Below are positions 2,076 to 25,249 of a stretch of 26,971 bases of DNA, one piece after another (the stretch's first letter is position 1; each line of letters opens with the position of its first letter). The notes beneath the pieces were generated by a model, which saw only the letters and a list, made by a program, of their open reading frames with translations, ran no database searches and was not told the origin of the DNA. Made by a program: the position numbers and the translations under genes. This DNA is from an uncultured Desulfobacteraceae bacterium (GTDB taxonomy: Bacteria; Desulfobacterota; DSM-4660; Desulfatiglandales; HGW-15), in contig CAYNYM010000001.1 of the NCBI GenBank assembly GCA_964401325.1, positions 1-26,971 of the forward strand, read 5' to 3'.

Positions 2076-2327
2076 AAGGAAAGGTTTAGTTCGCGACTAA
2101 AAAACCGTCTACAATTGCTATTTTTGTTTTGAAGTGAAATTCATTTCGCACATTTAGTTGCAGAAGCAATAATGCAGCGAAATTTACATCGCCACTCTTC
2201 GTGCAATCCCGCGATTTTTCCCAAAAACTACCCGTTAACAAACCCGAGGATACCTCGCCCTCTTGGTTCCTACGCTTAGGTATTGGCACATTGCACCGTC
2301 ACTCTTATGCCAATATCACAGCTAAGC
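2076..2327 (-). other. Structured non-coding element, copy B (diverged from copy A)
   Basis: 25 substitutions versus copy A, no indels. The arms of the 574-627 stem are unchanged. Its left end is exactly the duplication junction. Confidence 0.4.
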
Positions 2328-2423
2328 AGGGATTCCTTTGTCCAGAGGATTTGCGGCATCCTCGACTGAATTTATGATGCTCTGGAGGAAAGATATTTTC
2401 TATCTTCCCTTTTGAAAATGCAC

Positions 2424-3491
2424 TTATTTGGCCAGAACAAACGGTTCCACTCCATAATCATTTTTCAAAGTATTCCAATATGTTTCTGCTGCTTTTCTAG
2501 CCTGAAAACCTAACCCCTCATACTTCTTGACATATTCGTCAAGCTTCGGAGCGGAACACTGTTTCATTAAATTCTTTTCTTCATTCGTCAAATTATATAC
2601 TTTGATATGATAATTTTCTAAGCTCCTCTTGTCGATTGTATCCATGTTTTTCCCGGCCATGAGGGCGTATTTTCTACCATTTTTTTCCAAAATGTCCTTC
2701 GCTTCATCAGGGAGTTTTTTCCACGATGATTTATTCATCATTACACACATCGCCATACCGGGACCGTTAGCTAGTGTAATTTCATTACAAATGTGGTGTA
2801 GTGAAAAGACCTCCATAACGTTAATGCAAGTAAAGGTTGCATCAATCACACCCCTCTCCAATGCGGTGTAAACCTCAGGCATGGGGATGGCGACGGGTAT
2901 TGCACCTAGGGCCTTCATTAAATTCGCGGCTCCTGTTGTAGCGACTCTTATTTTTTTCCCTTTCAACTCTTTAAGGCTTTTTGCAGCTTTTGCAGCTTTA
3001 CTCCAGATAAAATGACTTGGCGATGTGCTCCACATATAAAGTAGTTTAACCTTGTCAAATTCTTTATCCAAACACCCGGCTTTCATCACAGACATGAGCC
3101 CCTGGCTTAATGCTTCCCCTGAGGGACCATGAGCAAAACTGGTCAAATCCGAAAGCGGGAACCGACCCGGGGTAAAACCGATATTTAAATATGAAAAATC
3201 GGCTGTCCCTGTAAGCGCAAGTTCATAGTGCTCCTTTGCTTTCCCAAGGGCTTGGGCATGGTACATCTGAACGGTTACTTTGCCTTCCGTTGCTTCTTCT
3301 ATATCCTTGATCATCTCCTTCCAGGTGGGTACGGCCGAACCCTTTTCACTGTCCCAGCTTGAGAGGGTGAATGTTTTTACTTTATCTGCACACAAAGCAA
3401 CGGAACAAACGGAAAAAAAACCAATAAGACACATTACAATCATTATTGCGACGAACTTGTTGTTTCCTTTTAGGATATTCCTTGTTGTCAT
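2424..3491 (-). CDS. dctP: TRAP transporter periplasmic solute-binding protein (DctP family), copy 2
   Basis: Translation identical to 724-1791. Confidence 0.92.
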   Translation of the reverse strand: MTTRNILKGNNKFVAIMIVMCLIGFFSVCSVALCADKVKTFTLSSWDSEKGSAVPTWKEMIKDIEEATEGKVTVQMYHAQALGKAKEHYELALTGTADFSYLNIGFTPGRFPLSDLTSFAHGPSGEALSQGLMSVMKAGCLDKEFDKVKLLYMWSTSPSHFIWSKAAKAAKSLKELKGKKIRVATTGAANLMKALGAIPVAIPMPEVYTALERGVIDATFTCINVMEVFSLHHICNEITLANGPGMAMCVMMNKSSWKKLPDEAKDILEKNGRKYALMAGKNMDTIDKRSLENYHIKVYNLTNEEKNLMKQCSAPKLDEYVKKYEGLGFQARKAAETYWNTLKNDYGVEPFVLAK

Positions 3492-3680
3492 TATTCTCTC
3501 TCCGTTTTTTTATCGCTCAGCCAATACAGGAGCGAAAGGTAAAATTTGAAGAAATATTACAAATTCACTGTCGCTGTTGATCCCCCATATGCCATACCTA
3601 AACGATCGTCATCACCCCCTTCCGCTGGTTGCAGACCAGAAGCGTCGCGTGTTTCAGTTCGGTACCATACACATCGTTTG

Positions 3681-5071
3681 TCAGTTTGAAAGCTCTTTCA
3701 TTAGCAAGCTGACATCTTCCAGATTTTGAAGGTTTTCTATCATTTCCTTGACTTTTTCTGTAGCCTCCTTTCTTAGTGGTTTTGCGGAAAATTCAATACA
3801 TTCATCAAATTTCTTCGCATAATCTGCCGCCACACCCGGATTTTTTGGGTGTCCTTTTACATATTCCACCGTCGTCATGTATCTCTGCTTGTTTTTCATT
3901 AGGATTTCCACATCCACCGGTGGAACGAGCTCTTCTAAGGTGTCTTTGCTGATATCTGCCTCAACACGAATTTTCTTCGCACATTTTAATACAGCATCTT
4001 CATTGATTCTTCTTTCTGAAAAGTCATCAATTTTCAGCTCTTTGCTTACAAGCGCTCGGGCCACCGTGTAGTAAAGACTGAATTGTGCATCATATGAACT
4101 CTTGGGATAAATTTTTTCAGGTGTAGCCAGGATGTTGGTGAAAAAGCTATTTGTTCGTATTACAATGTGATCAATGTCATCGGTATTTAGATGATGCCGA
4201 GCTACCAGTTGCATGGCCCCTTCAATTGCCGCATGATTACCCTGGCAGCACGAAAAAAACTTGGTGCTAATGTTCATTCCTTCAAAACTTTCTCCCAGAC
4301 CATTCAAAAGAACATTCGAGCTAAGATTTCCTCTCAGATAAAGCTCGTAAAACCCATATTTTCCCTCAAGGGGTTCTTTCGCCCCTGTAAGCCCTTCTTT
4401 GGCAAGGATAAGTGCCAAGGTGCCGGCCTGCGCTCCTAGCCCCTGCTGGAGAGTGACCGTGAAGGCCCCGTCGACGTTCGCCTGAGCGTTGCCCACGCAT
4501 TGAGCATAGCCGATCCCCATGGCATTCAGGGCTTTTGCTTTCGGAAAATTAAGCATCTTTGAGCCCATTAGCGCCACGGCGAGCGGAGTGAAGGCTTCTC
4601 CTACCCAGCCTATTTCAGGTCCGTCTTCTCTGCCCGCTTTTCGTAGTCTGATGGCCAGATCCGTACCCAATACAACGGATTTGATAAAATTTTTCCCGTC
4701 GATCGGGCGGTTATGGCGAGACTTGGCGTATTCAGCAATACAAAGTGCAGAAGGCACAATCTGCGCACTCGAATGCGTTCCCGCCTTTTCGTGAACATCG
4801 TCCATTTCTCGAGCCCTGGCCATCGTACAATTGGCAAGGGCAGCCAGGGGCGCTGGAACTTTGTCACCGTATACAGCAATCGTGCTTTCATTGCTCCCCC
4901 CCCAGGATTGAAGAATTCTCACGAGTTTTTGCATCCCAGGGTCGAGCTCCCGGCCACCATGATCCCCAAAGTATCCAGAATTCTATACTTCGTAATTTCA
5001 ATCAAATCATTGGTAAGGTCCTGGTAAGAAAGCTTTTCTGCATAGTCGATAATTTGGTCGGCAATCTTCAT
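3681..5071 (-). CDS. MmgE/PrpD-family protein, interrupted by an apparent 1-nt deletion at the T5 run 4926-4930
   Basis: The ORF track shows only 3681-4934. Upstream, GGAG-N8-ATG at 5071 gives MKIADQIIDYAEKLSYQDLTNDLIEITKYRILDTLGIMVAGSSTLGC, the typical PrpD-family N-terminus (ILDTLG..AG), which then stops. Adding one A (A5 to A6 on the minus strand) joins both parts into about 463 aa. Family motifs: CTMARAREMDDVH, KFFSCCQGNH, KGHPKNP. Confidence 0.85.
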
Positions 5072-5397: not shown

Positions 5398-7827
5398 CTA
5401 TGACCCTTCGGACAGAATGGATCGTTTGACCAGCGTTTTCACGATGTGTATTTTGTACTTGTTGCCGTCGAGCGGAATGGCGTTTTCAACGGCAATTTCA
5501 GCCGCCCTAGAGGCTGTCTCCTCCCCGGGCGCCTTGCCTTTTAAAAATTCCTCAACCTTTCTCAAAGTGACGGGAATGGGAGCCACGGCGCCCAGCACCA
5601 TTCTTGCATCCTTGAACTTTCCGGCATCCATTCTAAAAACCGTTGCCAGACTCGCTACGGCAAAATCGACAGAATGCCTGATTCTGAATTTCTCATAGGC
5701 CCCTTTAGTCCCATTTTCAGGAGCAGGCACCAGGATCTCTGTGAACACCTCATCGTAATCCAACCCAGTCGGATTGCCGTCTGTTGCCGAGAACAACTCC
5801 TCGGCCCGTATCGTCCGTTTGCTTGTCTTGATTCTTGCCCCCAAGGCAACCAGCACGGTGGCAATATCGGAAGCATTGACAGCCACGCAGCCGCAATTAA
5901 AGCAACGGATGGCTTCCGCCTCCACATTCCGCAATTCCAGGGTGGAGGTATCCTCCGTGTCTACGCCTCGCCCCTCAGGGGGGCGTTCAGGGATGGAGAT
6001 CGGGTCTATCTTTTTGAGGCACTCGCTGTTGAACCTCAAAAGCTCCCCCACACCCCCTTTCTCTTCGACTTCCATCGGTCCGTTTTCACTCCCGAAAAAT
6101 CGATCTATGGCCTCAGCGGCTCTTCTCCCTTCCGCCACGGCCTGAACCACGGTCGCGGACCCGCTTGTAAAATCGCCGCCTGCAAATACCCCCGGCAAAG
6201 CGGTCTGTTGCGAACCTTCTTCAACCAAGAGCGCATCGCCACCGATCATCTTCTCGGTTTCCGGGACGATATAGGAAAAGTCCGGCTTTTGTCCGATTGC
6301 AATGATGATTTGATCCGCCTCTACTGTCTGAGTTACGTTGTTCCCGAAAACAGGGGAAAAGGCCCCCTTTTTATCAAAAACAGAAGTACAGCGGATTAAC
6401 TCCATACCCTCCACCTTGCCATCGGTCACCAAAACCCTCGATGGTCCCCAGGAAGGCATCAGCTTGACACCCTCTTCGGTCGCCTTCTCAATCGCATAGG
6501 CAAGGACTGGCATCTCCTCCAGGGTTTCGAGGCAAGCGAGTGTCACTGTCTCCGCCCCGAGTCTTAACGCCGTGATACCCACGTCAATCGCAACATTGCC
6601 TCCCCCGATGACCAGGACTTTTTTAGCAGAACTTTTCTTAATGCCCCGTTTGACATTGATCAGGAAATCCAAGCCGGGCTCTGTAAAATCCTCGTTCTCA
6701 AGCCCAAGGGAGGGCAACACCCAGCTCCCCGTAGCAAGGAATACAGCATCAAATTCTTCTCTTAGCCTCTTCAAGGTAACATCAACGCCCACCTCGGTAT
6801 TGAGTCTGAACTCAATGCCCGCATCTTGAAACGCTTTTACAATACGATTAACATACTCGGCGGGAAGCCGAAAGGCGGGTATGGCGTGAGCGGGGATACC
6901 ACCCGGCGCATCCATTCGGTCCAAAACCACCACTTGGTGGCCCGATCTTCTAAGATAGAATGCGGCTGAAAGGCCACCGGGGCCGGAACCGATAACAGCT
7001 ACGCGCTTACCTGATTGGATATTAGGAGGAGTGATGAGTTCCTTGGCATTTTCAAGGATGTAGTCCCCCATAAAACGTTCTATCTCTCGAATGGATACCG
7101 CTGCATCCCAATCACCGCGATTACATTCCTCCTGGCAGAAATGAGGGCACACTCGGCCCGTAATCCCCGGGATCGGGTTCATCTGAAGAAGTATCTCAGC
7201 GGCCCCCTTCAGGTCCCCTTCCCTGATCTTGCTCATATAGGCAGGGATATCCACGGCCGCGGGACACTCTGATGTGCATGGGGTTTCGCACATCTTGACA
7301 GCCCCAAAAATAGAATGATACCGGTTATCGCCGAGCAGGGCACTACAACCCTTGCCTTCTCCCTTTGTGGAGTCATCATGTGTGACGTCGAAATCCCGGG
7401 TGTCTCTCTTTTTCATACAAAGAATGCGCCCGCCAATCTGGTGGGGGTATCGGTAATACCAGCATCGGACTTCCTGGCACAGGTTTCCCCCAATGGTGGC
7501 GAGGTTACGTATCTGAGGGCTTGCCACGGATTTGGCAGCATCGGCCAGAATTTCATACTTTTCCCGGACGATGGGAGATTCCGCTATTTGCGTCAGTCTG
7601 GCTAAGGCCCCGATTTTCAATCCATCCGAATCCTCCCGCACATAATCCAGGTCTGCAATGGTCTTCAGGTTAACAATGACTTCAGGGTAAACCGGGAGGA
7701 TCCTGTCCTTAAGGACACCGAGCAAATCCGTGCCACCGGCGTTCAGCCTCGCCTTACCTTGGTTATGCCTCAGAGATTCAACGGCTTTTTCGACTGTTTT
7801 CGCATTGACATGATTGAAAGATTTCAT
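5398..7827 (-). CDS. Xanthine-dehydrogenase-family FAD subunit (PaoB/HcrB-like) with an internal GltD-like Fe-S/FAD/NAD(P)H module
   Basis: 809 aa. N-terminal AGGTDL, ASPQIRNLATIGGNLCQEVRCWYYR; GltD-like PCTSECP and GRVCPHFCQEECNR; Rossmann motifs VIGSGPGG and VIGGGNVAID; GVFAGGD; then RCFNCGCVAVNASDIA and a C-terminal CO-dehydrogenase-flavoprotein-type domain (YEKFRIRHSVDFA, LGAVAPIP, NKYKI). Confidence 0.9.
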   Translation of the reverse strand: MKSFNHVNAKTVEKAVESLRHNQGKARLNAGGTDLLGVLKDRILPVYPEVIVNLKTIADLDYVREDSDGLKIGALARLTQIAESPIVREKYEILADAAKSVASPQIRNLATIGGNLCQEVRCWYYRYPHQIGGRILCMKKRDTRDFDVTHDDSTKGEGKGCSALLGDNRYHSIFGAVKMCETPCTSECPAAVDIPAYMSKIREGDLKGAAEILLQMNPIPGITGRVCPHFCQEECNRGDWDAAVSIREIERFMGDYILENAKELITPPNIQSGKRVAVIGSGPGGLSAAFYLRRSGHQVVVLDRMDAPGGIPAHAIPAFRLPAEYVNRIVKAFQDAGIEFRLNTEVGVDVTLKRLREEFDAVFLATGSWVLPSLGLENEDFTEPGLDFLINVKRGIKKSSAKKVLVIGGGNVAIDVGITALRLGAETVTLACLETLEEMPVLAYAIEKATEEGVKLMPSWGPSRVLVTDGKVEGMELIRCTSVFDKKGAFSPVFGNNVTQTVEADQIIIAIGQKPDFSYIVPETEKMIGGDALLVEEGSQQTALPGVFAGGDFTSGSATVVQAVAEGRRAAEAIDRFFGSENGPMEVEEKGGVGELLRFNSECLKKIDPISIPERPPEGRGVDTEDTSTLELRNVEAEAIRCFNCGCVAVNASDIATVLVALGARIKTSKRTIRAEELFSATDGNPTGLDYDEVFTEILVPAPENGTKGAYEKFRIRHSVDFAVASLATVFRMDAGKFKDARMVLGAVAPIPVTLRKVEEFLKGKAPGEETASRAAEIAVENAIPLDGNKYKIHIVKTLVKRSILSEGS

Positions 7828-7842
7828 TTTGTATACCTTTCT

Positions 7843-10113
7843 TTACACCTTACCCAATGTCTTAAGGATCTTGTCGGGCATAGCCGGATAGTCTTTGATT
7901 CTTTTGCCGATCGCATTGGAAATGGCCATGAGAACGGCGCTCGGACCGGGCGCAGTCGCTATCTCCCCGGCACCCAAGGCCTTGAAACGATGCGTTTCGA
8001 TCGGTGTTTCCAGAATGACATTCTTCATCTGCGGAAGATCCGGAAATGCCCGCCACTTGTAATCAATCATATTGGCATTCAAGATCCTTCCTGTGGCTTT
8101 ATCCAGGATGGTCTCCTCGAAAAACGCCGTGTCTATTCCCGCTGAGCCCAGACCTCCATAAAGCTGTCCGTCGAGGACGAGCGGATCAATGATTTGACCG
8201 ACATCTGTGGCTTGAACGACCCGAACCAATTCGGACGCCCCGGTATCCACGTCCACCTTCACCTCTACGAATGTCATCATGAAATTTGGCTTGGAAAAGT
8301 CCTCCTTAAATTGGCCGTGCCCTGTAATGGTACGCGTAGGACCCAGGACATCCATCCAGGAAAGGCCGACTTCATGCGCCCCTTCGATATAAATCATGCA
8401 GTCTTCTGTCTCCAGGGTCTCAGCGGGGGTATTAACCTTGGCGGCGGCAATTTCTAAGAGCTGTCGCCTTGCATTCTCCGCCGCTTCTATGACCGCGGAT
8501 CCTATCGCATAGGTCCCCCGGGAACCCACGAGTCCAAATTCAAAGGGGTTGATCATGGTGTCCGGTTCCGTAAGAGAAACGCTCCTAAGAGGCACGTTCA
8601 ATACCTCGGCAACCATCTTACATACACTGCTTCTCTCCCCCATGCCGGATTCACCTATACAACAATGCACGACGGCCCTGCCGTCCCCGCTCAACCTCAC
8701 AGCAGCCTCAGACTCATCTTCCCCCACATCGGCATTCCCGTGTAATCCAACACCCACACCGACCCTCTTTGATCCGTCTACTTCTGTTGACTTGAGCCAC
8801 CCTTTCCATTTATCTTTCCATCCAAAGGCCTCGGCACCTTTTTCCATGGCCTTTCTGTAGTCAAGGCCGTTACAGACGGTCCACACCCCGTTGCGCCAGT
8901 AATAGCCGTCACCGGGCTTGACATAGTTCATCTTAAAGACCTCAAGGGGATCAAGACCGGCTTTTTCAATGGCCAATGTCCAGAGGGGAAGCAGTGCACT
9001 TTTCAGTTCCTGACCGCCGAATCCCCTGACGACGATTGAGGGAACTCGATTAATCGCAACGGCTTTCGTTGTGACATTCCAATTTCGACAGGTGCCCATC
9101 ATCATCTGTGCTTCTCCACAGCCAACGGCCATTTGCCCCTGTGCCATATCTGAAAAGGCGCCCACGCCAACCAACCATTCCCCTTCCACTGCGGTCACCG
9201 TTCCATCATTTTTCATACCGATTTTGGCATGGATACGGCTCCCAAGCCGAACGCCATAGGAGGATAAATGCTGTTCTTTTGAGTAGCACAGTTTGACTGT
9301 CTTCCCTGTCGCTTTCGCCAGCGCGGCGGCGTAAAAAACGACCACCCATGGATTGTTTTTTGAACCGTAGCTCCCGCCGCACTGGACGCCGATCGAACGG
9401 AAATCCGGATATCCCATATACCGCCCGATTTTCATCTTTAACATGCTGGGGCACTGGCTTGATGACCAGACAGTGATCCTGTCCGGCTCTTCCCACTTGA
9501 CAATGACTCCCGGGGCCTCAGGGGGCCGGGGATTCGGGATATTTTCATATCCATACGTCCCTTGCGTGATCACATCGGCCTCCGCAAACCCTTTCTCCGC
9601 ATCGCCCCTCATGATATCTTTCAAGTGCGTAGGTCCGAAAAAGGGGCATCCCGGAGGAAAAAGATTGTTGGGGTACTCATCGTATAGCTGCGCAGCCCCG
9701 GGCTTCATGGCCTCATCCACATCATAAACAGCCGGCAGAATATCATACTCGACATCGATGTGTTCCATCGCCTCCTCGGCGATTGCTTCGGAGGTCGCCG
9801 CCACCAGGGCTACCCCGTCCCCAACAAATCGGACTCTGCGATCCAGCACAAGTTTGTGTGGAAGCGGGATCCCCCCCTTCCAATCTGGCACATTTTTGTG
9901 CGTTAGCACGGCCATGACGCCGGGCAACCTTTCAGCCTCACGTGTATCGATGTGCTTGATATTGGCGTGGGCATGTGGGCTCATCAAGACTTTTGCATAA
10001 ATGATACCCGGCATCTTTAAATCATCAATGTACTTCGCCGCCCCTGTGACGACGTCCATGGCATCTTTCCGAGGTGCGGGTTTGCCGATGTGCCGGTAAT
10101 GCTCCTTAGACAT
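7843..10113 (-). CDS. Xanthine oxidase/aldehyde oxidoreductase-family molybdopterin-binding large subunit
   Basis: Motifs: DVVTGAAKYIDD, GGSYGSK, RGFGG, GSRG, DVGQIIDP, GAGE (catalytic Glu position). Start placed at ATG 10113 from RBS spacing (GGAGG at 10122-10126); 10119 and 10122 are alternatives. Confidence 0.93.
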   Translation of the reverse strand: MSKEHYRHIGKPAPRKDAMDVVTGAAKYIDDLKMPGIIYAKVLMSPHAHANIKHIDTREAERLPGVMAVLTHKNVPDWKGGIPLPHKLVLDRRVRFVGDGVALVAATSEAIAEEAMEHIDVEYDILPAVYDVDEAMKPGAAQLYDEYPNNLFPPGCPFFGPTHLKDIMRGDAEKGFAEADVITQGTYGYENIPNPRPPEAPGVIVKWEEPDRITVWSSSQCPSMLKMKIGRYMGYPDFRSIGVQCGGSYGSKNNPWVVVFYAAALAKATGKTVKLCYSKEQHLSSYGVRLGSRIHAKIGMKNDGTVTAVEGEWLVGVGAFSDMAQGQMAVGCGEAQMMMGTCRNWNVTTKAVAINRVPSIVVRGFGGQELKSALLPLWTLAIEKAGLDPLEVFKMNYVKPGDGYYWRNGVWTVCNGLDYRKAMEKGAEAFGWKDKWKGWLKSTEVDGSKRVGVGVGLHGNADVGEDESEAAVRLSGDGRAVVHCCIGESGMGERSSVCKMVAEVLNVPLRSVSLTEPDTMINPFEFGLVGSRGTYAIGSAVIEAAENARRQLLEIAAAKVNTPAETLETEDCMIYIEGAHEVGLSWMDVLGPTRTITGHGQFKEDFSKPNFMMTFVEVKVDVDTGASELVRVVQATDVGQIIDPLVLDGQLYGGLGSAGIDTAFFEETILDKATGRILNANMIDYKWRAFPDLPQMKNVILETPIETHRFKALGAGEIATAPGPSAVLMAISNAIGKRIKDYPAMPDKILKTLGKV

Positions 10114-10118
10114 ATGCA

Positions 10119-10610
10119 TCACCTCCCTTTCTCCGCGGCCTTAGAAACTGCATCCAGGACATGGTAATGACTTATGCACCTGCAATAGTGTCCGGCAAGA
10201 GCATCCTTTACTTCCTTGTCTGTCGGCAAAGGATTTTCGTTTAGCAAGGCCTTTGAGGTCATAAGGATTCCCGGCGTGCAGAAACCACATTGAAAGGCCG
10301 AATTTTCGATAAAGGCCTTTTGTAACGGGTCGAGTTCCCCGGTCTCAGGACTCCGCAAGCCCTCTATCGTCGTAATACTTTTCCCATCGCACTCAACCGT
10401 CAGCATCATGCAGGAGGGAACCGGTTTCCCATCCAAGAGGACCGTGCAGGCACCGCACGCGCCCCTGTCGCACCCCACCTTCGTCCCTGTAAGATCAAGC
10501 GTCTCTCTCAGGGTGTGAGACAGTGTGTGATTTGGTGCCACTTCGTCGCGATTGTTACCGATCCTCATTTCGTATGATTCCCCATTGACCGTTAGGGTTA
10601 TTTGTTCCAT
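10119..10610 (-). CDS. 2x[2Fe-2S] small subunit of the xanthine-dehydrogenase-family enzyme (CoxS/PaoA-like)
   Basis: Motifs: GTKVGCDRGACGACTVLLDG..C, QCGFCTPG, GHYCRC. Likely start MEQITLTVNG at 10610 (the ORF track extends to 10649). Confidence 0.95.
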   Translation of the reverse strand: MEQITLTVNGESYEMRIGNNRDEVAPNHTLSHTLRETLDLTGTKVGCDRGACGACTVLLDGKPVPSCMMLTVECDGKSITTIEGLRSPETGELDPLQKAFIENSAFQCGFCTPGILMTSKALLNENPLPTDKEVKDALAGHYCRCISHYHVLDAVSKAAEKGR

Positions 10611-10802
10611 TTTTTTCTTCCCCCCCCTCTTTTGTTTCGCTCTTTTCATGTATTCTATCGGGTTGCCCTAAAGTTTTAAAATTCAGGATGACGTTGATCG
10701 AAGGTGCCAAGGGTTACGCTGTGGTGAACTGACGCGAATCCTTGATCCGCCCAGCCCAAGGCTTCATGAGAGAGGGGAACCCGCCCGAAGCGGCCTGAAT
10801 CA

Positions 10803-10832: not shown

Positions 10833-11306
10833 TCAGGGTTTATTAAGCATGTTCACAAGATTTTTCGTCAAATGCCGCTTTTCTTCTTGGGTCATGTCAC
10901 AAAAAAATTTTTCGTGGTTCTTCGATTTCTCCTCCTCGACCTTGACCAGGGTTTCTGTTCCTTTTAAAGTAATTTCTACAAGAATCACGCGTTCGTCATT
11001 CGGATCCCTCTCTCTAATCACGAATCCTCGTTTCTCCAATCTCTTGAGGAGAGCCGATATATTGGGTCCGGAAACAAGCATTTTTCTGCTCACATTGGTC
11101 GTCGTGGTCTTCCCTCCCTCATAGGTACACAATACCCGAAGAACATTATACTGGGGGAAAGTAATTCCGCTTTTCTTGAAAATCGCACCTTGTTCTCTTT
11201 TTAATCGCTCTGCCACACGCACTAGGTTGAGCATAACTTTTTCATGGAGTGTCAGAGCTTTATCATTCCATCTTTCTAAATTCCGAATATCTTCCGAAAA
11301 ATGCAT
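10833..11306 (-). CDS. MarR-family transcriptional regulator
   Basis: 157 aa. GITFPQYNVLRVL, ISALLKRLEKRGFVIR and DERVILVEITLKG match the winged-helix MarR signature. Confidence 0.93.
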   Translation of the reverse strand: MHFSEDIRNLERWNDKALTLHEKVMLNLVRVAERLKREQGAIFKKSGITFPQYNVLRVLCTYEGGKTTTTNVSRKMLVSGPNISALLKRLEKRGFVIRERDPNDERVILVEITLKGTETLVKVEEEKSKNHEKFFCDMTQEEKRHLTKNLVNMLNKP

Positions 11307-11473: not shown

Positions 11474-12316
11474 CTATTTGAAAAGAATCACGCCCGCATA
11501 ATGGCTCTCTATCAAATCGAGCTCCAGGGTTTTGCGCTCAAACTCCCCCAACAGTATCTCAATGCGATAGGTTCCGCTTTTTTCTTCAAGGTTATCGAAT
11601 TTGAAGTCTCCGAAGCTGTCAGTCACGGTCTCGTCAACCTTGTCGGAACCCTTTTTCAATAGCACTACGGAACCTGCGGCACAGTCCGTTTTCCCGTCGT
11701 GCTCGTAGGCGACGCTTCCGGCGATGAAACACCGCGAATAGCGATATAAATTCTTGTAATAGACATGCGGCTTTGTGCCGTATTCAGAATGCAAACAGGT
11801 AAGATTCTCCGATTCGACGACCTCCTGCATTTTGGCATGCTTACCATAGATCACCCGCATCGCGCCTGTCGGGCAGGCCTGAACGCACCGGGGCTCTTTC
11901 CATCCGTTCTCAAGCAGATGGACGCAAAAGGTGCATTTTTGGGGCAGATCGAGATCCTCATTCCACCAAATGGCGCCATAGGGGCATGCATCGACAAGAC
12001 TCTTTTCGCCTTTGGCCTTTTTCGGATCTATGATAACAATGCCGTCATCCCTCCTATAGACTGCGCCTTCCGGGGCTTTTTTGATGCAAGGAGCATTGTC
12101 GCAGTGCATACAGGGAGTGGGCCGGTAAGCCACATCCACCATTGGAAACCGGCCTCTTTCCTTGCGCATGAGATTGATCCATCGGTGGCCATGCCTGGGT
12201 TGAGACATGGAATAAGGGGGAAAATCGTTCCCGACGAACTCATCCTTGCATGCCAGGAAGCAATTATTACAGTCCTCACATTTTTTTACGTCGATAATCA
12301 GGTTCCATTCTTTCAT
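11474..12316 (-). CDS. Pyrogallol-phloroglucinol transhydroxylase beta-subunit-like 4Fe-4S protein
   Basis: 280 aa. [74 protein letters not shown], plus a C-terminal beta-sandwich ([12 protein letters not shown]), as in the Pelobacter acidigallici beta subunit. ATGA overlap with the alpha gene. Confidence 0.9.
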
Positions 12317-15300
12317 TTACTTTCCCTCCCCATATCCCACTTCTCGATCTGAACCAGGCATGAATTATAGGCTGCGGAGTGGGAATTCTTAATCATCGAT
12401 CGACTGGGGGTCAGGAGGTTTATGCAACCGCCACGGTCCGCCGAATTTCCAGGCTCACCCAAGGGGTCATAGATTGCACTGGAAGAAAAAGAGTTGACGG
12501 TTCCCGGCGGAAGTCGCTCGGTCACTTTGGCAGCACAAACGACCGCTCCACGGTCATTAAACACCTTGACCAGTTCATTCTTTTTGATACCGCGATTTTG
12601 GGCATCCTTCGCGGGGATCCTCACAATCCAGTAATAATATCCATCGATCAGGACCCTGTGGTCCTTCACATCGTTAATATAACTGTCCTTCCCATCCGAA
12701 TGGGTATGGAAGCTGAACCTCGGATGGGGTGATAATAACTGCAAAGGATATTTCTCATAGAGCTCCTTGGTATGATGGCCCTCCCAGGATGGAATGTATT
12801 TGCTTATGATTGGCCTCTCTGGGTCGTCCGAATCAAAACGTTTAAGGCTGGAGCATTCAAATTCAATCTTCCCGGATTGGGTTTGAAGGCCTTCCTTGTA
12901 ATTTCCCGAATAGTCTGATGGAAAGGGAGATGGATCCGGGATATCCTTGGGTCGTCCCTCGGCAAACCATCTATATGCACAGGGCGAACGCATTTCCTCC
13001 TTCGGTGGTGGGACAACATAATACCCTTTCTTCAGAAATTTCTTCCAGGAAATGACCTTCGGCAGGTCCGTGCCGTCGAAGTGTCTCTTACACCAATCCA
13101 ACTCTGTCATGCCTTCGGAATAGTAAGCGCTGAGCCCAAGGCGCTCCAACAACCGTGTGAAAATCGCGTAGTCCGGCTTGCTCTCTCCCAGGGGCTCTAT
13201 ACATTTGTGTTGAATATGGATGACACGATGGTTTAATTTGGTATAGTTTCCAAGTGAATAGCCGCCCGCATTGCATGCCTCTCCGATGTCCCATCTCTCA
13301 AAATTGGTGCATGCCGGTAGGATAATGTCGGCAAATTTGACTTCACCCTCCATCCAGATGGACTGGTTCACGACAAATTCCAGCTTGGGGGTCCTATAGG
13401 ATTTAACATAGCGATTGGTATCGTTCATGGTGCCGAAAAAGGATCCCCCATACTTATAATACATTTTTATTTCCGCATGGCCCGGCGCAGGGTATCCGAA
13501 GCGGAAGAACTGGCCCTCAATATTGTTGGGAACTGTTGGAAAGCCTTCACAGCGGCCCTCCAGTATAGCCTCCGGAATCCTCAAACGGGGGACCTTCTGC
13601 ATGACCGTGTTCAGGGTGAGGAGATGGGGCATCCGCTGATAGACATTAGCGGCCGCCCCCGTTGTGGCAAGATCCCCGGAGATACCTCCCTCGGCGTAGC
13701 CCGAGAAGTAGAAGTTAGCGTCAACGGGGGTCCCCATGGTCAGGTTTCCCATGTTGATACCGGGTTTGCCAAGACCCTGCATGGCCATGAGGCAGACCAT
13801 GGACCGGGCCCATTCCGTACCCGTGGCGCAACGACAGGCGCCCCCTTGGGTCTGCCCTGCGCCCCCAGGCGAAAGATAGGTCTTTTTCGTTCCCCACTCC
13901 CTTGCCAGCGCCCGCACATCTTTGGCCGGAACCGTTGTCTCATTTTCCTGCCACTCCGGTGTTTTTGGAACACCATCCTCCTCGCCCAGGATGTAATCCT
14001 TCCATTTTTCAAAGCCCGTGGTTCGCAGGGCGACATACTCCTTGTCATACAAGTCCTCGGTGATCCAAACATAGGCGATCGCCAGGGCCAGGGCATTGCC
14101 GGTGTCAGGTCTGGGAGCAAGCCACTTGCCTCCAAACAGGGCCGCCGTATTGTTGTAATAGGGATCGATGTGCACCATTTTGACCCCCAACTCGCTCATC
14201 CATTGTCGGCGAACAGTGCCCTCGAAGGCACCGTAGGCACCGGGGGCGGATTCAGGGTCACTGGACCAGAACACGATCATGTCGCATTCTTTGAGGGCAT
14301 CCTCCACGGTACCGTAAGGCTCCGCCGTTCCCAGACGCATGCTGTGCCCCCAATGATGCATGGCCCCCCAGTACCATCCCTCCCAACTATCCGGATTTTG
14401 CACAACGGGTGTACCGCCCACGAGCTGCATAAACCGTCGATGGGCGCTCAAATAATAGCCGATATTTCCCCACATATGGTGCGATCCCGGAGTCGTCAAA
14501 ATGGCACCCGGCCCAGAGGTCCTTTTGACCCGTTTAATCTCGTCGGCCACGATATCCAGGGCCTCGTCCCAACCAATGCGTTCATATCCGGAGATCCCCC
14601 TGTTCTCGCAATGGCGAGCACCCTTTGGATCGAAATCAACTCTTTTCATGGGATACATGAGCCTATCAGGTGAATAGATCATGGATTTTGAGGCAAATCC
14701 GTATGGCGCAAGCGTTGTCTTACGAGGGGGACTGAACGTCTTACCCCTTGCCTTAATGGTCCAGGATGCTGGATCGCTCTCGTCGAATTCCACAGGTGTC
14801 ATTCGAATGATCTTGCCCTCTTTCACATAAACAAAGACCGGCATGCCACTAGCATTATTGACATACCGTTTCGTGCCATTCCCCACATCCGTTCCGTAAT
14901 CCGTGCCGATTGTCAGCAGAAGCCCCAATGTCTCCAAGAGCCAGTGCGACAACTCATCGGGACCTTCCAACTCCAATTGGAAATTCTTCATAGCATTAAT
15001 CCGGGTGAGGTGGTCCCAGGGGGGTGACATGCACTCCACCGCCAGGGCCGCACTGTTAAAGGTCATCAAGACATCGGGATTGGGATGGATGCCATTTCTT
15101 GACAGAACGTCCCCGTCTTTGAAGGTAAAATACCGGCCCGCGGAATTATCCTTAACTTTCAATTGCGCAGTAAAACTCTTTTCCTTTAAGCGAGACCTCA
15201 GGGCAGGATATTTTCTGGCGGTCCTATTCAAAAGTTGTTTGATACTAAAGAGCACTATGAGCAGGAAAACCTTATCCACCACTGCTGATTTCCCCAGAAC

Positions 15301-15345
15301 CAGCTTGAATGCAATAGCCTTCAAATTAAAAAAAATTGCTTCCAA
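12313..15345 (-). CDS. Pyrogallol transhydroxylase alpha-subunit-like Mo-bisPGD enzyme (DMSO reductase family) with a ~150-aa N-terminal extension
   Basis: 1010 aa. [34 protein letters not shown] (Ser Mo-ligand motif), [47 protein letters not shown], all closely following the transhydroxylase alpha subunit. TTG start after GGGGAG; exact start uncertain. Confidence 0.9.
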
Positions 15346-15426: not shown

Positions 15427-16119
15427 TTAATCCCCATCGCTCTTTGTGAGCATCTCTGACAACATTGAAAGTCCTGTCACCGCATCATCAGCCCAGGCAT
15501 CCGCACCGATCTCTTTTGCAAATTCCTGGGAGGTAGCGAGTCCCCCGATAATTGTCTTGACCTTCAATTTTTTGTCATGAATCATGGATACAAGCCGCTT
15601 CATATTAAGCAGCGCGGGGGTCATCAACGCCGACACGGCTATGATATCCGCCTGTTCCTTTTCTGCTGTCGCGATGAATTTTTCCAAGCGAACGTCACGC
15701 CCCAGATCAATGACACGATAACCCCCGGATTCAAAAAGGGCGGAAACCAAATTTTTCCCGAAATCATGAATGTCACCTTCAACCGTTCCAATCACTACCG
15801 TCCCTTTTGTCCGGTCTTGAGTGGCCGAGGTCTTAATCTCAGGAATAAGGAGGTCGAAAGCGCCTTGAATTGTATCGGCCATTAAAAGGAGTTCAGAAAA
15901 TGAGAGATCAAAAGAATGTTGGGCTTTACATGCCGACACCAACTGGGGGAACAGGATATCGTTGACTATCTCAATGGCAGAAAATCCGGAATCCTTGGCC
16001 TCAGAAACCAGGCTTACAAGCCTTTCCTTGTCCCAGTCATGAATGGCAGCACTAATGTTTCGGCAAATGTCTTCCCTATTCACATCCATCTCCACTCGCA
16101 CTGATTTCCGAGTCTCCAT
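15427..16119 (-). CDS. Corrinoid (B12-binding) protein, MtaC/MtbC-like
   Basis: N-terminal helical cap domain plus GTVEGDIHDFGKNLV (DxHxxG), VIDLGRDV, SALMT, IGG, IGADAWADDA. Start at ATG 16119 (GTG 16122 or ATG 16089 possible). Confidence 0.92.
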   Translation of the reverse strand: METRKSVRVEMDVNREDICRNISAAIHDWDKERLVSLVSEAKDSGFSAIEIVNDILFPQLVSACKAQHSFDLSFSELLLMADTIQGAFDLLIPEIKTSATQDRTKGTVVIGTVEGDIHDFGKNLVSALFESGGYRVIDLGRDVRLEKFIATAEKEQADIIAVSALMTPALLNMKRLVSMIHDKKLKVKTIIGGLATSQEFAKEIGADAWADDAVTGLSMLSEMLTKSDGD

Positions 16120-17264
16120 CACGAACCCCCTCGGCCTTCGTGAAGCATGATTTTGAGTCTGGCCTGATTTTCGCGGCGCGCTTTTCCCGTATTGGGCGGT
16201 TTTGCTTTTGTTCCCTCCCAGCCAGGGTTGAATATCAGATCAAGGAGATGCACGGCCGGCTTGTTGACGGCCAAGGCTTCACGGCAGCTTGCGCAGTAAG
16301 TCAATAGGTCATGGACAGCTTCCTCTGCCCTGGCTTTACTTATAATCGGTGCGAGTTTAGGATCGACAAAAGCCATCTGGCCGCCCAGACCGCAGCAACG
16401 GGTTTTTTCCCGCGAATACTTCATCTCTTCAATCTCGTACCCCATTTCCCTGATCAAGTCCCTGACGCTTTCTTGCAGTGCTCCTTCAGATCTGGTCGTG
16501 CAGGGGTCATGAAGAGAAAAAACCTGTCCCCTTGCCTTTATCCGCTCCGGCAAACCGACTTTTAGCAAAACATCACTGATAAAGGTCAGCGTCAACTCCG
16601 GCGCATGCTCCCTGAGGGTTGCATAACATTCCGGACAGGCAACAATGATTTCCTTAGTTCCCAAGTTTTTAAACCTATCGACGGTCTCCCCCAGAACCTC
16701 CTCAAAACGGTCCCTGTCCCCTAAATGAAGGGTCTGGACTCCGCAGCAACTCAACACAATGCCGGTTCCCGGCAGTCTTTCCCGAAGATGCTCATAGGTC
16801 TTGACAGTGAGGGAAGGAGAGTATCCGGGAAGGCTGCAACCGGGGAAAAAGATTCTTTCGCATGTATCGGTATTCAGGTCCGGCAAAGCCAATGAAAAGG
16901 AATCGGAAAGGACATAATCCTGGTTTTTCCTGACAAAGGTGTGTCCCCGCAGGGGACCAAGTCCTTCTTTCACCAGTTGCTCACGCAATTGCAGGCAAAG
17001 GGCACCTATATCCAGTTCATTGGGGCAAATCTGTCGACATAACCCGCAGAGGTTGCACGAGTAAACAATTTCTGGATGCTCGCGAAAAAAGCCCTCCTTG
17101 AATTTTTCGGCCAATTCTCGAGGTGAGGTGCAATACTTCTCCAGAAATTTGCAGTTCTTGACACAAAGACCACACTCCTTGCATTCCTCAATTATGGAAT
17201 CCCATTGAGGCAGCACCTCCCTTTCCCGGCAAGACGCTTCCATTTCTTGGCGTGACGCTTCCAT
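16119..17264 (-). CDS. Fe-S protein: two 4Fe-4S motifs plus two CCG (HdrB/GlpC-like) domains
   Basis: CKECGLCVKNC and CNLCGLCRQICP; FFPGC, CCG, ACPEC, HDPC, RCCGLGG, YCASC. Start at ATG 17264 after AGGAG (the ORF track extends to 17339). Confidence 0.88.
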   Translation of the reverse strand: MEASRQEMEASCREREVLPQWDSIIEECKECGLCVKNCKFLEKYCTSPRELAEKFKEGFFREHPEIVYSCNLCGLCRQICPNELDIGALCLQLREQLVKEGLGPLRGHTFVRKNQDYVLSDSFSLALPDLNTDTCERIFFPGCSLPGYSPSLTVKTYEHLRERLPGTGIVLSCCGVQTLHLGDRDRFEEVLGETVDRFKNLGTKEIIVACPECYATLREHAPELTLTFISDVLLKVGLPERIKARGQVFSLHDPCTTRSEGALQESVRDLIREMGYEIEEMKYSREKTRCCGLGGQMAFVDPKLAPIISKARAEEAVHDLLTYCASCREALAVNKPAVHLLDLIFNPGWEGTKAKPPNTGKARRENQARLKIMLHEGRGGS

Positions 17265-17277
17265 TGCTATTCTCCTG

Positions 17278-18654
17278 TTAGCGATTATCCGTAATTTTTT
17301 TCTTGGCCCGCCCGCCGGGGCTGAAGGCTCCCAGACCAACCAAGTTCAGCCGGGGTTCGTCTATGGCTCCGTCGGCAAGATTCTGGCGGATCAGGGGTGA
17401 CTCCAGGATCGCCCTCCTTAAGGACTGCTGAACGTCGGCGCCTATGCGCGTAACCTCTGCCGTAAAATCCAGGCGGTCCTTTCCTTCGGCCCTGGCAATT
17501 TCAATCTGATAATCAACCAATTCGGGTATCCGGTAGAGGGGCTCGTCAAACAGGCCGAAGTAGACCTCGTCTCCATGCCCCACTTTGATCCCTGATTCCA
17601 GACGCCTGCTTATCTTCCCAATCCTGCGCAGGCTGCCGGCTCCGCAGGGGCAGGGTTCGGTAATCCAATGGGATATATCGTGGGTCCTGTACCGTATGAG
17701 AGGCATCCCCTCCCGTGTCAGGGTGGTAAAAACCAGTTCTCCTTCTCCCTCCTCCAGGACCTCGCCTGTTTCAGGCTCCACGACCTCGAGGAGAAGATCC
17801 GCTTCGTTAAAGTGATAGCCATTGTGGGCGTGACATTCCACCGCGACACCCAGCCCCATTTCAGTGATCCCATAATGGTTGTGGACGTCGGCCCGCCATG
17901 TGTCTCTTAGGTGATCCCGCATGGACTCAGAGAGGTATCCGGAAGTAACGAATACGGTTTTCACTCCAAGTTTATCCAACTCCACATGTTGTTTTAACTC
18001 CTGTGTCATCCGGTATATTCGCGGCGTTACACCAAACAAAACGGTCGGCCTGTGTTGGTGTATATGCTTAAGCTGGTCCTCGGCGCTCAGGTTCAAGCCC
18101 GTTTTTACGGGCGTGATACCCTGTTTTTGCAGGCCTTTGGCCAAGAGATCCCCTTGATTGTTAGACGTTCCCGAAGGCAGGATGATCTGAACGATATCTT
18201 CGGTGTCGGCCACCGTCCTCAACGCTGCACCCATAAAATCTGTGATCCGCTCAACATCACCCTGCGTGCAGAACACCCTTTTTTGAGGGCCGGTGGTCCC
18301 CGAGGTCGTGAAGGTCGTCACTTTGGCGATGTCTCCATGGGAACCGCAGAGGAATCGGTTGGGATACGCGGCCAAATCTGACGGATCGGTTAGGGGGATC
18401 CTCGCCAGATCAGACAAGGATCGAATGTCCCTGGGAGTGATATTGTGGTCCTTGAAGACCTGCCTGTAAAACGTGCTTTTTTCATAGACATGGACCAATG
18501 TTTTTCTTAATTCTAACAACTGATATGTTTCGACATCTGCTCTGGTTAGCTTGCCGGGGGTTGATCGACTGATGTACTTTCGATATTCTTCGTTATCTTC
18601 TCGTTTTTTTGCTATTTTTTCATGGAGCCAGCGCTCCAAATAGATGGCGTTCAT
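17278..18654 (-). CDS. PaaK-like AMP-dependent ligase (resembles DVU_1553-family CoA ligase)
   Basis: 458 aa. TTSGTTGP, YGITEMG, GELVFTTLTREGMPLIRYRTHD; N-terminal YQLLELRKTL..S.FY as in the PaaK group. Confidence 0.85.
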   Translation of the reverse strand: MNAIYLERWLHEKIAKKREDNEEYRKYISRSTPGKLTRADVETYQLLELRKTLVHVYEKSTFYRQVFKDHNITPRDIRSLSDLARIPLTDPSDLAAYPNRFLCGSHGDIAKVTTFTTSGTTGPQKRVFCTQGDVERITDFMGAALRTVADTEDIVQIILPSGTSNNQGDLLAKGLQKQGITPVKTGLNLSAEDQLKHIHQHRPTVLFGVTPRIYRMTQELKQHVELDKLGVKTVFVTSGYLSESMRDHLRDTWRADVHNHYGITEMGLGVAVECHAHNGYHFNEADLLLEVVEPETGEVLEEGEGELVFTTLTREGMPLIRYRTHDISHWITEPCPCGAGSLRRIGKISRRLESGIKVGHGDEVYFGLFDEPLYRIPELVDYQIEIARAEGKDRLDFTAEVTRIGADVQQSLRRAILESPLIRQNLADGAIDEPRLNLVGLGAFSPGGRAKKKITDNR

Positions 18655-18684
18655 GATCTCTGTTTCCTTCTTATAAATTGATCG

Positions 18685-20040
18685 CTAGCCGATTACTTCA
18701 GGATAGAGTCTCTGCCCGGTGGAGCTGGTTAAATAATAGGCGCAAAAGGGATAAATTTTGCAATCCGGGGCGACTACATGCCCGCAACACCGCTTCAGTC
18801 GATCCAAATCAATGCTCCAGACGTCCTGAAAGGGCATGCAGCTGATGGTGAGGCCCTGGGCTGCGACCTCTCGGTATAGATTTCCCCAGCAATTACAATT
18901 TGTTGCAGGAGGAAAAAGTTTTTCTTCCTTGGGTTGCCAGTGGGCGTTCATAAACGAACGTGCTGTCTCCCAGGGCGGCCTGCGATCGTCTCCCCGTCGA
19001 CCCGCCCCATCCTTGGCCCGCCTCCTGCCGATGGCCTCTAAGCGTCCGTCCCGAAGGACGAATATGGCGGAGAAGGAACAGTGGGAGTCTTGAGAGCGAC
19101 GGGGCATTAAATTCTCTCCCTTAATCTCTCCCTTTGTTTGCCTCTCGAGTCCCCGGATCAGGTCCGGTATGGTGATCCGATCCTCATCCGTGGGGGGAGC
19201 CGGGAACCTTCCGATATAGCTGATCGGCTGGAAATGAACGCCTCTTACTGTCGGTATTCGGCCTTTGGCAAAACGGATAATGTCGCCCAGTTGGTGGTCA
19301 TTGACTCCCGGGACCAGTGTGGGGACGAGAACAACGCCCAGATGAAAATCCGTGCAGTTGCTGATGGCCCTCTCCTTTAAATCGAACAGGTCCGCCCCGC
19401 GCGTATAGCGATACACCTCATCGGTCACGCCATCAAACTGGAGATAAATAGTGCCGGCCCCGGCATCCGCAAGCCTCCGGAGATAGTCCCTGTCCTTGGC
19501 GATCCGCACACCATTACTGTTAACCATGATGTGCTGAAAACCTATGTGCTTTCCCAGTGCCACAATTTCCGGCAGGTCATCCCGGACTGTCGGCTCTCCC
19601 CCGCTGAGTTGAATGGTGGGAAGTCCTGTAACCTCCAACACACTCTCATACATCCTTCTTATTGTTTCAAGGTCAGGCTCATAGGCCGTTGCAGCGTTGG
19701 TACTCGCAAAACAGACCGGGCATTTCAAATTACATCTCTGGGTAACATTCATGACCATCGTGCAGGCATTTGCCTTGTGCTCGGGGCAAAGGCCACAGTC
19801 ATAAGGGCAGCCATCTCTGACAGGTGTAATGCTTTTCAGTGGACCTACCGCTTCTTCACCACACTCACCCCAATCGATATAATCCTGCAGGGTCCCTCGC
19901 CAAATAAGGGTTTTAAAAGGACCGTGTTCAGGACATTCTTTCTCCAGATAGACATTTCCGTTTTCAGAGACTCTCCTGGCTGAAATCCTTTTCAGACACG
20001 CCGGGCATAGACTCTCCGTTTCTTGCGATAATTTGCTCAT
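18685..20040 (-). CDS. Radical SAM protein, MJ0619/TrsS-like
   Basis: 451 aa. CNLKCPVC (CX3CX2C), QLSGGEPT, YLQFDG, N-terminal CPAC / ECPEHG and GCPYDCGLCPEH Cys clusters, C-terminal MPFQDVWSIDLDRLKRCC and PFCAY. Confidence 0.88.
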   Translation of the reverse strand: MSKLSQETESLCPACLKRISARRVSENGNVYLEKECPEHGPFKTLIWRGTLQDYIDWGECGEEAVGPLKSITPVRDGCPYDCGLCPEHKANACTMVMNVTQRCNLKCPVCFASTNAATAYEPDLETIRRMYESVLEVTGLPTIQLSGGEPTVRDDLPEIVALGKHIGFQHIMVNSNGVRIAKDRDYLRRLADAGAGTIYLQFDGVTDEVYRYTRGADLFDLKERAISNCTDFHLGVVLVPTLVPGVNDHQLGDIIRFAKGRIPTVRGVHFQPISYIGRFPAPPTDEDRITIPDLIRGLERQTKGEIKGENLMPRRSQDSHCSFSAIFVLRDGRLEAIGRRRAKDGAGRRGDDRRPPWETARSFMNAHWQPKEEKLFPPATNCNCWGNLYREVAAQGLTISCMPFQDVWSIDLDRLKRCCGHVVAPDCKIYPFCAYYLTSSTGQRLYPEVIG

Positions 20041-20102
20041 TGTTAAAAAAATCCTCTGTAATCTATCTTATTGTTATCACCTGTTGTCGTTTCCCTCTCC
20101 CA

Positions 20103-23589: not shown

Positions 23590-23661
23590 TTTGAATCCTC
23601 CTTTTTTCAGATAACCCTTCAAAACCTTACGTTTTTTTCAATGCGGGGTCATGATTATTGT

Positions 23662-25215: not shown

Positions 25216-25249
25216 GCACCTCTTTTCTGTTGGTTATTCGTTCCCTATC

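Follow-up and report, generated by a model that had tools for sequence, protein, structure and literature searches.

An uncultured Desulfobacteraceae bacterium encodes, at positions 5398..7827 on the reverse strand of the window (26,971 nucleotides of contig CAYNYM010000001.1, GenBank assembly GCA_964401325.1), a medium subunit of the xanthine dehydrogenase (XDH) family with two predicted flavin sites. Judged from its sequence, this 809-residue protein is an XDH-family FAD subunit in which a whole NfnL/GltD-like module has been spliced between the third and fourth cysteines of a [4Fe-4S] loop. Its gene is the last of a three-gene operon (10649-5398, reverse strand) for a cytoplasmic XDH-family molybdenum enzyme, in the order 2Fe-2S subunit (F), molybdopterin subunit (O) and fused FAD subunit (C). 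By its predicted architecture, the enzyme is of the Uxd type, a two-flavin design that is already known and that occurs in hundreds of anaerobe genomes. On balance, we favor a function as an NAD(P)H-fed F-O-C molybdoenzyme that drives a reductive reaction, most likely the dehydroxylation of an aryl or heteroaryl compound.

An earlier note on this DNA, made from the letters alone, had anticipated a FAD_binding_5 domain split by Fer4_20 and Pyr_redox_2 and followed by CO_deh_flav_C, and a Pfam scan recovers exactly this order. FAD_binding_5 (E=1.7e-32, 113 bits) matches in two stretches, the first of which (aa 3-119) corresponds to positions 2-114 of the 170-position profile. Fer4_20 follows at aa 180-260 (E=3e-21), Pyr_redox_2 at aa 275-567 with the whole profile covered (E=6e-31), and CO_deh_flav_C at aa 710-805 (E=4.5e-15, 56 bits). 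The succession of FAD_binding_5 and CO_deh_flav_C, both above their gathering cut-offs, identifies the host as an FAD subunit of the XDH/CODH type, and the predicted four-domain assignment as a whole is far beyond chance. Cysteines are found at positions 117, 122, 137, 161, 180, 184, 188, 227, 231, 235, 432, 480, 603, 642, 645 and 647. The parts of the protein are listed below with the evidence on which each is based; conservation of ligands refers to an alignment of 186 sequences, made up of 120 database proteins and 66 open reading frames (ORFs) from genomic loci.

5398..7827, reverse strand: fused two-flavin medium subunit (C), 809 aa (ORF list, Pfam, alignments)
7471..7827, reverse strand: N-terminal part, host FAD_binding_5 with AGGTDL and TIGGN, aa 1-119 (Pfam, invariant residues)
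7300..7470, reverse strand: first part of the HcrB/PaoB-type [4Fe-4S] loop with C122, C137 and C161, aa 120-176 (alignment to 5y6q_B and 1rm6_B)
5905..7299, reverse strand: inserted GltD/NfnL-like module, aa 177-641 (Pfam, PDB phmmer, Foldseek)
7048-7290, reverse strand: Fer4_20 of the inserted module, aa 180-260 (Pfam)
6127-7005, reverse strand: FAD/NAD(P)H Rossmann pair of the inserted module, aa 275-567 (Pfam)
within 5905..7299, reverse strand: linker of the inserted module, aa 568-641
5887..5904, reverse strand: return motif C-F-N-C-G-C (C642, C645, C647), aa 642-647 (186/186 conservation; motif in 9bov_A, 8oh5_C and 9n5u_A)
5401..5886, reverse strand: rest of FAD_binding_5 (NASD) and CO_deh_flav_C, aa 648-809 (Pfam; alignment to 5y6q_B residues 152-327)

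The insertion point was located by deleting residues 177-636 and searching the remainder against the PDB sequences. The shortened protein aligns in one piece, end to end, with the medium subunit of the Methylobacillus aldehyde oxidase (5y6q_B, E=2e-36). The four loop cysteines of 5y6q_B face C122, C137, C161 and C647 of the fusion, and the extra material is limited to the residues AEAIRCFNCG just before C647. Likewise, C122, C138 and C155 of HcrB (1rm6_B) face C122, C137 and C647. These alignments place the module between ligands 3 and 4 of an HcrB/PaoB-type loop, which is where the earlier note had put it; the cysteines it named (122, 137, 161 and, within GCVAVNASD, 647) are all correct, and its span of aa 177-646, given as nt ~5890-7300, maps to nt 7299-5890. 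The four aligned cysteines lie between the TIGGN and (S/G)D motifs and each is present in all 186 sequences. By homology, C647 is predicted to be ligand 4 of the host's loop cluster. The same four-Cys [4Fe-4S] loop is found in the medium subunits of PaoABC (5G5G) and of the Methylobacillus enzyme (5Y6Q), but these are oxidative aldehyde oxidoreductases with neither an inserted module nor an NAD(P)H site.

The closest relatives of the module are themselves inserted cassettes. In a phmmer search of the PDB with aa 160-660, the top matches are the NfnL-like domains of the Bfu-type NfnA proteins of Thermococcus sibiricus (9n5u_A, 6e-85) and Caldicellulosiruptor (9bov_A, 2e-84), followed by Sporomusa ovata StnC (8oh5_C, 1e-72), NfnB/NfnL (4ylf_B, 7e-68, and 5jca_L), and then GltD and DPD. 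Foldseek, run with an AlphaFold2 model of the fusion (mean predicted local distance difference test score [pLDDT] 73, predicted template modeling score 0.66), returns the matches in the same order, with template modeling scores (normalized to target length) of 0.75-0.79 to NfnL/NfnB/GltD; its matches in the PDB cover the GltD-like part only, and none of the solved structures spans the whole fusion. NfnA and StnC (9N5U, 9BOV, 8OH5) are thus the best matches to aa 180-648 by both sequence and fold. The likeness to 9bov_A and 8oh5_C takes in the linker and reaches as far as a common (E/S)xxRCxxCGC motif, whose cysteines are C642, C645 and C647 here; RCxxCGC follows the module in 9n5u_A as well, and the PDB alignments of the module end at aa 648. 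The module therefore has the same boundaries as in StnC/NfnA-type enzymes.

In NfnA and StnC, too, an NAD(P)H electron-input cassette is set into another Fe-S protein. The GltD-like part of StnC (aa 102-565) sits inside a NuoG-like domain and acts as a non-bifurcating NADPH electron-input module (PMC10482914); the Bfu-type NfnA module is likewise a non-bifurcating input module (PMC10482914, PMC12018979), and the NfnL-like domain has been described as shuffled into several enzyme families in the work on NfnABC (PMC12018979). The scaffolds differ, however: that of NfnA and StnC is NuoG/Fdh-like, whereas Pfam finds no NuoG, Fdh or molybdopterin-oxidoreductase domain in the fusion. The proximal cluster ligand is Lys there and Glu here, the dinucleotide loop is YRR (NADPH) there and CLE here, and those modules form part of a bifurcating BfuABC complex. 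NfnB/NfnL, GltD and the N-terminal half of DPD share with the module the Fer4_20 and Pyr_redox_2 domains, FAD, a nucleotide site and two [4Fe-4S] clusters. In contrast to the module, they are free-standing or N-terminal; no NfnS, GltB or DHODH-like partner accompanies the fusion, and the first Cys pair of their cluster motif is apparently missing from it, its place probably being taken by C642 and C645.

Residues C122, C137, C161, C184, C188, C227, C231, C235, C642, C645, C647, E250 and R320 are invariant in all 186 sequences. C180 is mostly replaced by Ala, Thr or Gly, and strict conservation is lacking at C432 and C480. Of the two Fe-S motifs that had been proposed for the module, C184, C188, C227, C231 and C235 are therefore retained throughout the family and C180 is not; C642 and C645, absent from the earlier note, have to be added. 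E250 aligns with K170 of StnC and with the Glu of NfnB/NfnL, which provide the non-Cys fourth ligand of the FAD-proximal cluster in those proteins (PMC10482914; PMC12018979). Eleven invariant cysteines and Glu250 amount to exactly 12 ligands, enough for three [4Fe-4S] clusters, and this count fits the three clusters previously thought probable. Since the Fer4_20 region offers only five invariant cysteines and E250 for two clusters, C642 and C645 are most simply the two missing ligands, and we infer that they complete the distal cluster of the inserted module. The C-x-x-C-x-C return strand would then probably bridge the distal cluster of the guest and the loop cluster of the host. A parallel is provided by the ferredoxin motif CxxCxxCxxxCP, in which the fourth Cys binds the neighboring cluster.

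The flavin and nucleotide motifs, followed in an alignment of 30 sequences, are preserved to a similar degree. The host FAD site keeps A30-G-G-T-D-L35 and T111-I-G-G-N115 without change or nearly so, and the same holds for the guest motifs G280-x-G-P-x-G285 (GSGPGG) and G550-G551 (FAGGD) and the second Rossmann motif, G408-G-G-N-V-A. Together with Fer4_20 and Pyr_redox_2, the invariant residues G280, G282, P283, G285, G408-410 and G550-551 identify the insert as a GltD/NfnL-type module. The second FAD site and the pyridine-nucleotide site that had been read from the sequence are hence mirrored in conserved motifs for two predicted FAD sites and one NAD(P)H site. The NADPH-type YRR loop of NfnB, StnC and NfnA is replaced by VTLACLE (A-C432-L-E434). 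CLE occurs in 178-182 of the 186 relatives (~96%) and (Y/F)RR in four. In Rossmann folds, a preference for NADH is classically marked by the disappearance of both Arg residues together with a newly acquired acidic residue where the second strand ends, and the exchange of YRR for CLE may reasonably be taken as a hint of such a preference. The idea of NAD(H) use, raised earlier from ACLE, gains strength from the four relatives that keep (Y/F)RR, because the coexistence of both loops in one family supports a specificity switch. These four (L015, L053, L058 and L068) come from genomes of Syntrophorhabdales, Dehalococcoidales, Deltaproteobacteria and Syntrophorhabdus. At L058 and L068, an AMP-dependent ligase adjoins the operon, which would fit a CoA-ester substrate.

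The fused subunit is encoded together with the 2Fe-2S and molybdopterin subunits expected of an XDH/CODH-type operon, in adjacent or overlapping genes; the 2Fe-2S and Mo genes share nucleotides 10119-10122, where the first stops and the second starts.

10119..10649, reverse strand: 2Fe-2S small subunit (F), of the 2x[2Fe-2S] type (Pfam Fer2_2 and Fer2; NCBIfam XDH-family gamma matches)
7843..10122, reverse strand: molybdopterin (molybdopterin cytosine dinucleotide-type) catalytic subunit (O), 759 aa (Pfam Ald_Xan_dh_C, MoCoBD_1 and MoCoBD_2)
10833..11306, reverse strand: MarR-family regulator, candidate regulator of the operon (Pfam MarR_2 and MarR; directly upstream, same strand)

Translation of the F subunit probably starts at Met14 (nt 10610), and the protein has no twin-arginine translocation signal; a periplasmic location was rejected for this reason, and the enzyme would reside in the cytoplasm, as a user of pyridine nucleotides must. 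The NCBIfam matches of F, all to XDH-family gamma subunits, remain below the equivalog cut-offs. Among solved structures, the best relative of the Mo subunit is HcrA of 4-hydroxybenzoyl-CoA reductase (hereafter 4-HBCR; 1rm6_A, E=7e-74, 252 bits), with the next structure at 6e-54 and 186 bits. The MarR gene occupies the same position at L081, the locus of an 82%-identical relative.

HcrABC of Thauera aromatica (1RM6) resembles the window enzyme, as predicted from its sequence, in having Mo, two [2Fe-2S] clusters, FAD and an extra [4Fe-4S] cluster in a loop of the FAD subunit, as well as the closest solved Mo subunit. It carries out a reductive dehydroxylation with inverted electron flow, and the same flow is proposed here. 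HcrB, however, has a short loop only and HcrABC draws electrons from an external ferredoxin, and all three window subunits score far below the 4-HBCR equivalog cut-offs (TIGR03193/4/5: beta 138 of 405, alpha [TIGR03194] 356 of 995 and gamma 160 of 258 bits). No description of such a fusion was found in the 4-HBCR literature on Geobacter, Desulfatiglans and Syntrophorhabdus.

The precedent lies instead in the human gut. The earlier note knew of no characterized example of the architecture; this is outdated, and a characterized relative was among the findings that the note itself said would count against it. The uxdFOC genes of Enterocloster asparagiformis were found by proteomics and, when expressed in Clostridium sporogenes, conferred 10-position dehydroxylation of urolithins M6 and M7 in a whole-cell assay (Pidgeon et al., NPJ Biofilms Microbiomes 2025; PMC12658268). 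AlphaFold3 predicts two FADs at opposite ends of UxdC, and the authors suggest that 4Fe-4S clusters shuttle electrons between them (PMC12658268). As described, UxdFOC of E. asparagiformis and also of E. citroniae and E. pacaense is an XDH-family trio in the order 2Fe-2S, Mo, FAD, and UxdC joins an FAD-binding domain, a 4Fe-4S domain and one for FAD/NAD(P), as the window protein does; the host here is an environmental anaerobe of the Desulfobacteraceae rather than a gut member of the Lachnospiraceae. Enterocloster paralogues compared directly are 44-47% identical to the window C subunit over its full length, with identical junctions, and 35-49% identical to its O subunit; the protein at E. asparagiformis locus L020 stands at 47%, full length and with the same junctions. 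Two loci were considered as the true uxd locus and set aside: L076 has a counterpart in E. lavalensis at 99% identity and L020 has an 89% orthologue in Hungatella, and both facts misfit the published uxd distribution. The E. citroniae locus, L069, is orthologous to neither L020 nor L076.

Other reductive members of the family are more distant in design. The urolithin C 9-dehydroxylase UcdCFO/UcdhABC is a reductive XDH-family enzyme that uses NADH and acts on free phenols, not CoA esters (PMC11760930; PMC12771579). It differs in its gene order (C-F-O) and in its plain FAD subunit, which has no [4Fe-4S] loop and no inserted module, and it was rejected as a characterized homologue for lack of the loop in UcdC. 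E. coli XdhD-YgfM, an XDH-family reductase that converts urate to 2,8-dioxopurine, is encoded beside the GltD/DPD-like flavoprotein YgfK (PMC12507026). YgfK is nonetheless a separate, DPD-like enzyme that is neither fused nor wired to XdhD and reduces the next intermediate (PMC12507026), and the pair was therefore rejected as an unfused precedent. Literature on the ergothioneine C-S reductase and on later Uxd work yielded nothing further.

These comparisons suggest a route for electrons through the enzyme. NAD(P)H, probably NADH, would deliver a hydride to the distal FAD of the inserted module, from which single electrons would pass to the Glu250-ligated proximal [4Fe-4S] cluster (C188, C227, C231), then to the distal [4Fe-4S] cluster (C184, C235 and, as proposed above, C642 and C645) and on to the loop [4Fe-4S] cluster of the host (C122, C137, C161, C647). 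From there, they would reach the host FAD, the two [2Fe-2S] clusters and finally the Mo cofactor, where the substrate, most likely an aromatic or heteroaromatic compound that loses a hydroxyl group, would be reduced. The inserted module would thus act as a built-in pyridine-nucleotide port that replaces the external ferredoxin of 4-HBCR. This wiring of NAD(P)H to two FADs, the [4Fe-4S] and [2Fe-2S] clusters and Mo, outlined in its essentials before, is well supported as a prediction by the conservation described here. A reductive direction is favored because HcrA is clearly the nearest solved structure to the Mo subunit, because reductive XDH-family enzymes have accumulated (4-HBCR, Ucdh with NADH, XdhD-YgfM) and, above all, because of Uxd. 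The HcrABC-like reductive dehydroxylation suggested in the earlier note agrees with the activity of UxdFOC, the only member of the family with a known function (PMC12658268).

Several points weigh against a reductive dehydroxylase with this wiring. The one member with a known function, Uxd, was assayed in whole cells. Most XDH-family members are hydroxylases, and the [4Fe-4S] loop leaves the direction of flow undecided, since oxidative aldehyde oxidoreductases (PaoB, 5y6q_B) have it too. The Mo subunit falls below every NCBIfam equivalog cut-off, and its identity to the Enterocloster paralogues compared does not exceed 49%. In the AlphaFold2 model, the cluster-binding segments (aa 119-169, 179-181, 233-241 and 646-652) have pLDDT values below 50. 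Finally, the 18 closest loci share nothing beyond the three subunits, so that no neighboring gene points to a substrate.

The same wiring could be run in reverse by a hydroxylase or oxidase of an N-heterocycle, an aldehyde or an aromatic acid, with the module as the exit to NAD(P)+, a role that the FAD domain plays in xanthine dehydrogenase. We think this unlikely, though it deserves to be taken seriously: most characterized XDH-family enzymes are oxidative, the host halves match best an aldehyde-oxidase subunit with the same [4Fe-4S] loop (5y6q_B), NfnL/GltD-type modules are reversible (PMC10482914), and the Mo subunit scores nearly equally on the XdhA and 4-HBCR alpha models (359 and 356 bits). 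Among solved structures, however, the reductive 4-HBCR alpha subunit is closest to the Mo subunit by a wide margin (252 versus 186 bits), Uxd, the sole functionally tested enzyme with this subunit design, is a reductive dehydroxylase, and the relatives are almost confined to strict anaerobes and fermenters, for which reductive sinks are useful.

Flavin-based electron bifurcation, for which the enzyme had been named a candidate, is improbable. The NfnL-like FAD would split the electron pair of NAD(P)H, sending one electron to an exergonic dehydroxylation at the Mo site and the other to ferredoxin, and aryl dehydroxylation with NADH should release enough energy to cover the cost. The Glu ligand of the proximal cluster (E250, 186/186) is typical of bifurcating NfnL, as opposed to the Lys of non-bifurcating StnC/NfnA, and the Arg equivalent to R201 of NfnB is invariant (R320). 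The same Arg is found, however, in non-bifurcating StnC, and in sequence the module is closest to the non-bifurcating Bfu-type modules. Moreover, the low-potential branch of NfnSL is made up of the two [4Fe-4S] clusters, which here run toward the Mo enzyme, and neither an NfnS-like partner (FAD and [2Fe-2S]) nor any other second exit was detected among the 17 window ORFs scanned or within the conserved trio. With one visible electron exit and no NfnS-like partner in the window, the proposal is not supported.

The fusion is a regular feature of a large family. More than 120 full-length clusters, 52-82% identical and all with PF00941, PF14691, PF07992 and PF03450, came up in a protein search, and a scan of one genome per species confirmed the fusion at 566 loci at least, in hosts that include Syntrophobacterales, Desulfatiglandales, Syntrophorhabdales, Dehalococcoidia, Anaerolineae, Acidobacteriota and Synergistaceae. 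Cultured hosts, some with complete genomes, include Enterocloster asparagiformis (two loci), E. citroniae, E. lavalensis, Hungatella hathewayi, Schaedlerella arabinosiphila and Acetobacterium tundrae; E. asparagiformis DSM 15981 and H. hathewayi DSM 13479 carry the same fusion, with the same junctions, on complete chromosomes. Among 80 loci kept for neighborhood analysis, a 2Fe-2S gene lies near the fusion in 71 and a Mo gene in 73, in the great majority directly upstream in the order 2Fe-2S, Mo, fusion and in a few downstream or on the opposite strand; at several loci without these genes, the contig ends not far from the fusion gene. A chimeric assembly or a fused pseudogene, to which a perfect 1.7-kb tandem repeat elsewhere in the window lends a trace of plausibility since it leaves the assembly not beyond question, is refuted by this family-wide recurrence of fusion and junctions, complete chromosomes included, and by the independent assembly of L081, which shows the same neighborhood and F-O-C order around its 82%-identical protein.

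Across the 80 loci, the fused subunit is 42-57% identical and the Mo subunit 25-63%. A common NAD(P)H port beside strongly diverged Mo subunits suggests one conserved electron-input device that would serve many substrate specificities. Gut Enterocloster and Hungatella carry several paralogous F-O-C operons (L020, L076, L061, L075, L069, L023 and L034), the Mo subunits of which are 34-45% identical to one another. At L020, the operon that comes directly after F-O-C has the order C-F-O and a plain FAD subunit.

A pyrogallol-hydroxytransferase-like molybdoenzyme is encoded on the same strand (11474-15345), just upstream of MarR and of the F-O-C genes, with a 1010-aa large subunit (AhtL-like_1st and Molybdopterin) and a Fer4_11/CarboxypepD_reg small subunit. 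The arrangement is kept at L081 and at none of the 80 genome loci, and this neighbor hints at polyphenol metabolism. A five-gene cassette follows at 15427-20981 (reverse strand), encoding a B12-binding protein, a CCG/Fer4 protein, a DVU_1553-family AMP ligase (348 bits, cut-off 300), the radical SAM (seleno)protein TrsS (562 bits, cut-off 490; full-length, with no in-frame stop) and a class I methyltransferase. Further upstream, the redox genes of 21495-26947 (reverse strand) encode a 680-aa molybdopterin oxidoreductase (similar to Fdh-alpha, with a match that begins at profile position 35), an acyl-CoA ligase and a flavoprotein of the fumarate-reductase/succinate-dehydrogenase type that reaches the window edge. 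On the other side of the operon, ~460 nt of non-coding DNA separate the fused gene from an MmgE/PrpD-family gene (3681-4934, reverse strand), which may be N-terminally truncated, its match starting at profile position 44. The syntenic locus L081 lacks this gene and has DctP directly next in line. The tandem direct repeat of 1.7 kb (~400-2080 and ~2100-3780) is 100% identical over ~1.4 kb and ~90% identical at its 5′ edge; it yields two identical DctP/TRAP solute-binding genes (724-1791 and 2424-3491, reverse strand) and copies the last ~100 nt of the PrpD-like gene. It is either a recent duplication or an assembly artefact.

For the window, the appropriate annotation is that of a putative NAD(P)H-linked XDH-family reductase. 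The Uxd report gives neither the insertion point in the Cys loop nor the ligand count nor the CLE/YRR switch (PMC12658268). To the literature found, the present analysis adds these features (the exact insertion point, the count of twelve ligands and the dichotomy of CLE and YRR loops) together with a CxxCxC strand that may bridge two clusters, cassette boundaries held in common with StnC/NfnA, and the size and spread of the family. This anatomy suggests specific sites at which Uxd-type dehydroxylases could be mutated and their cofactors analyzed, and it reveals the NfnL-like cassette reused as a plug-in at the cluster-binding loop of an unrelated scaffold. The enzymes form a large family of anaerobic molybdoenzymes with scant biochemistry, spread from sulfate reducers, Syntrophorhabdus and Dehalococcoidia to Enterocloster and Hungatella of the human gut. 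Should bifurcation prove true after all, this widespread family would be an unrecognized energy-conserving device in the anaerobic degradation of aromatics and polyphenols.

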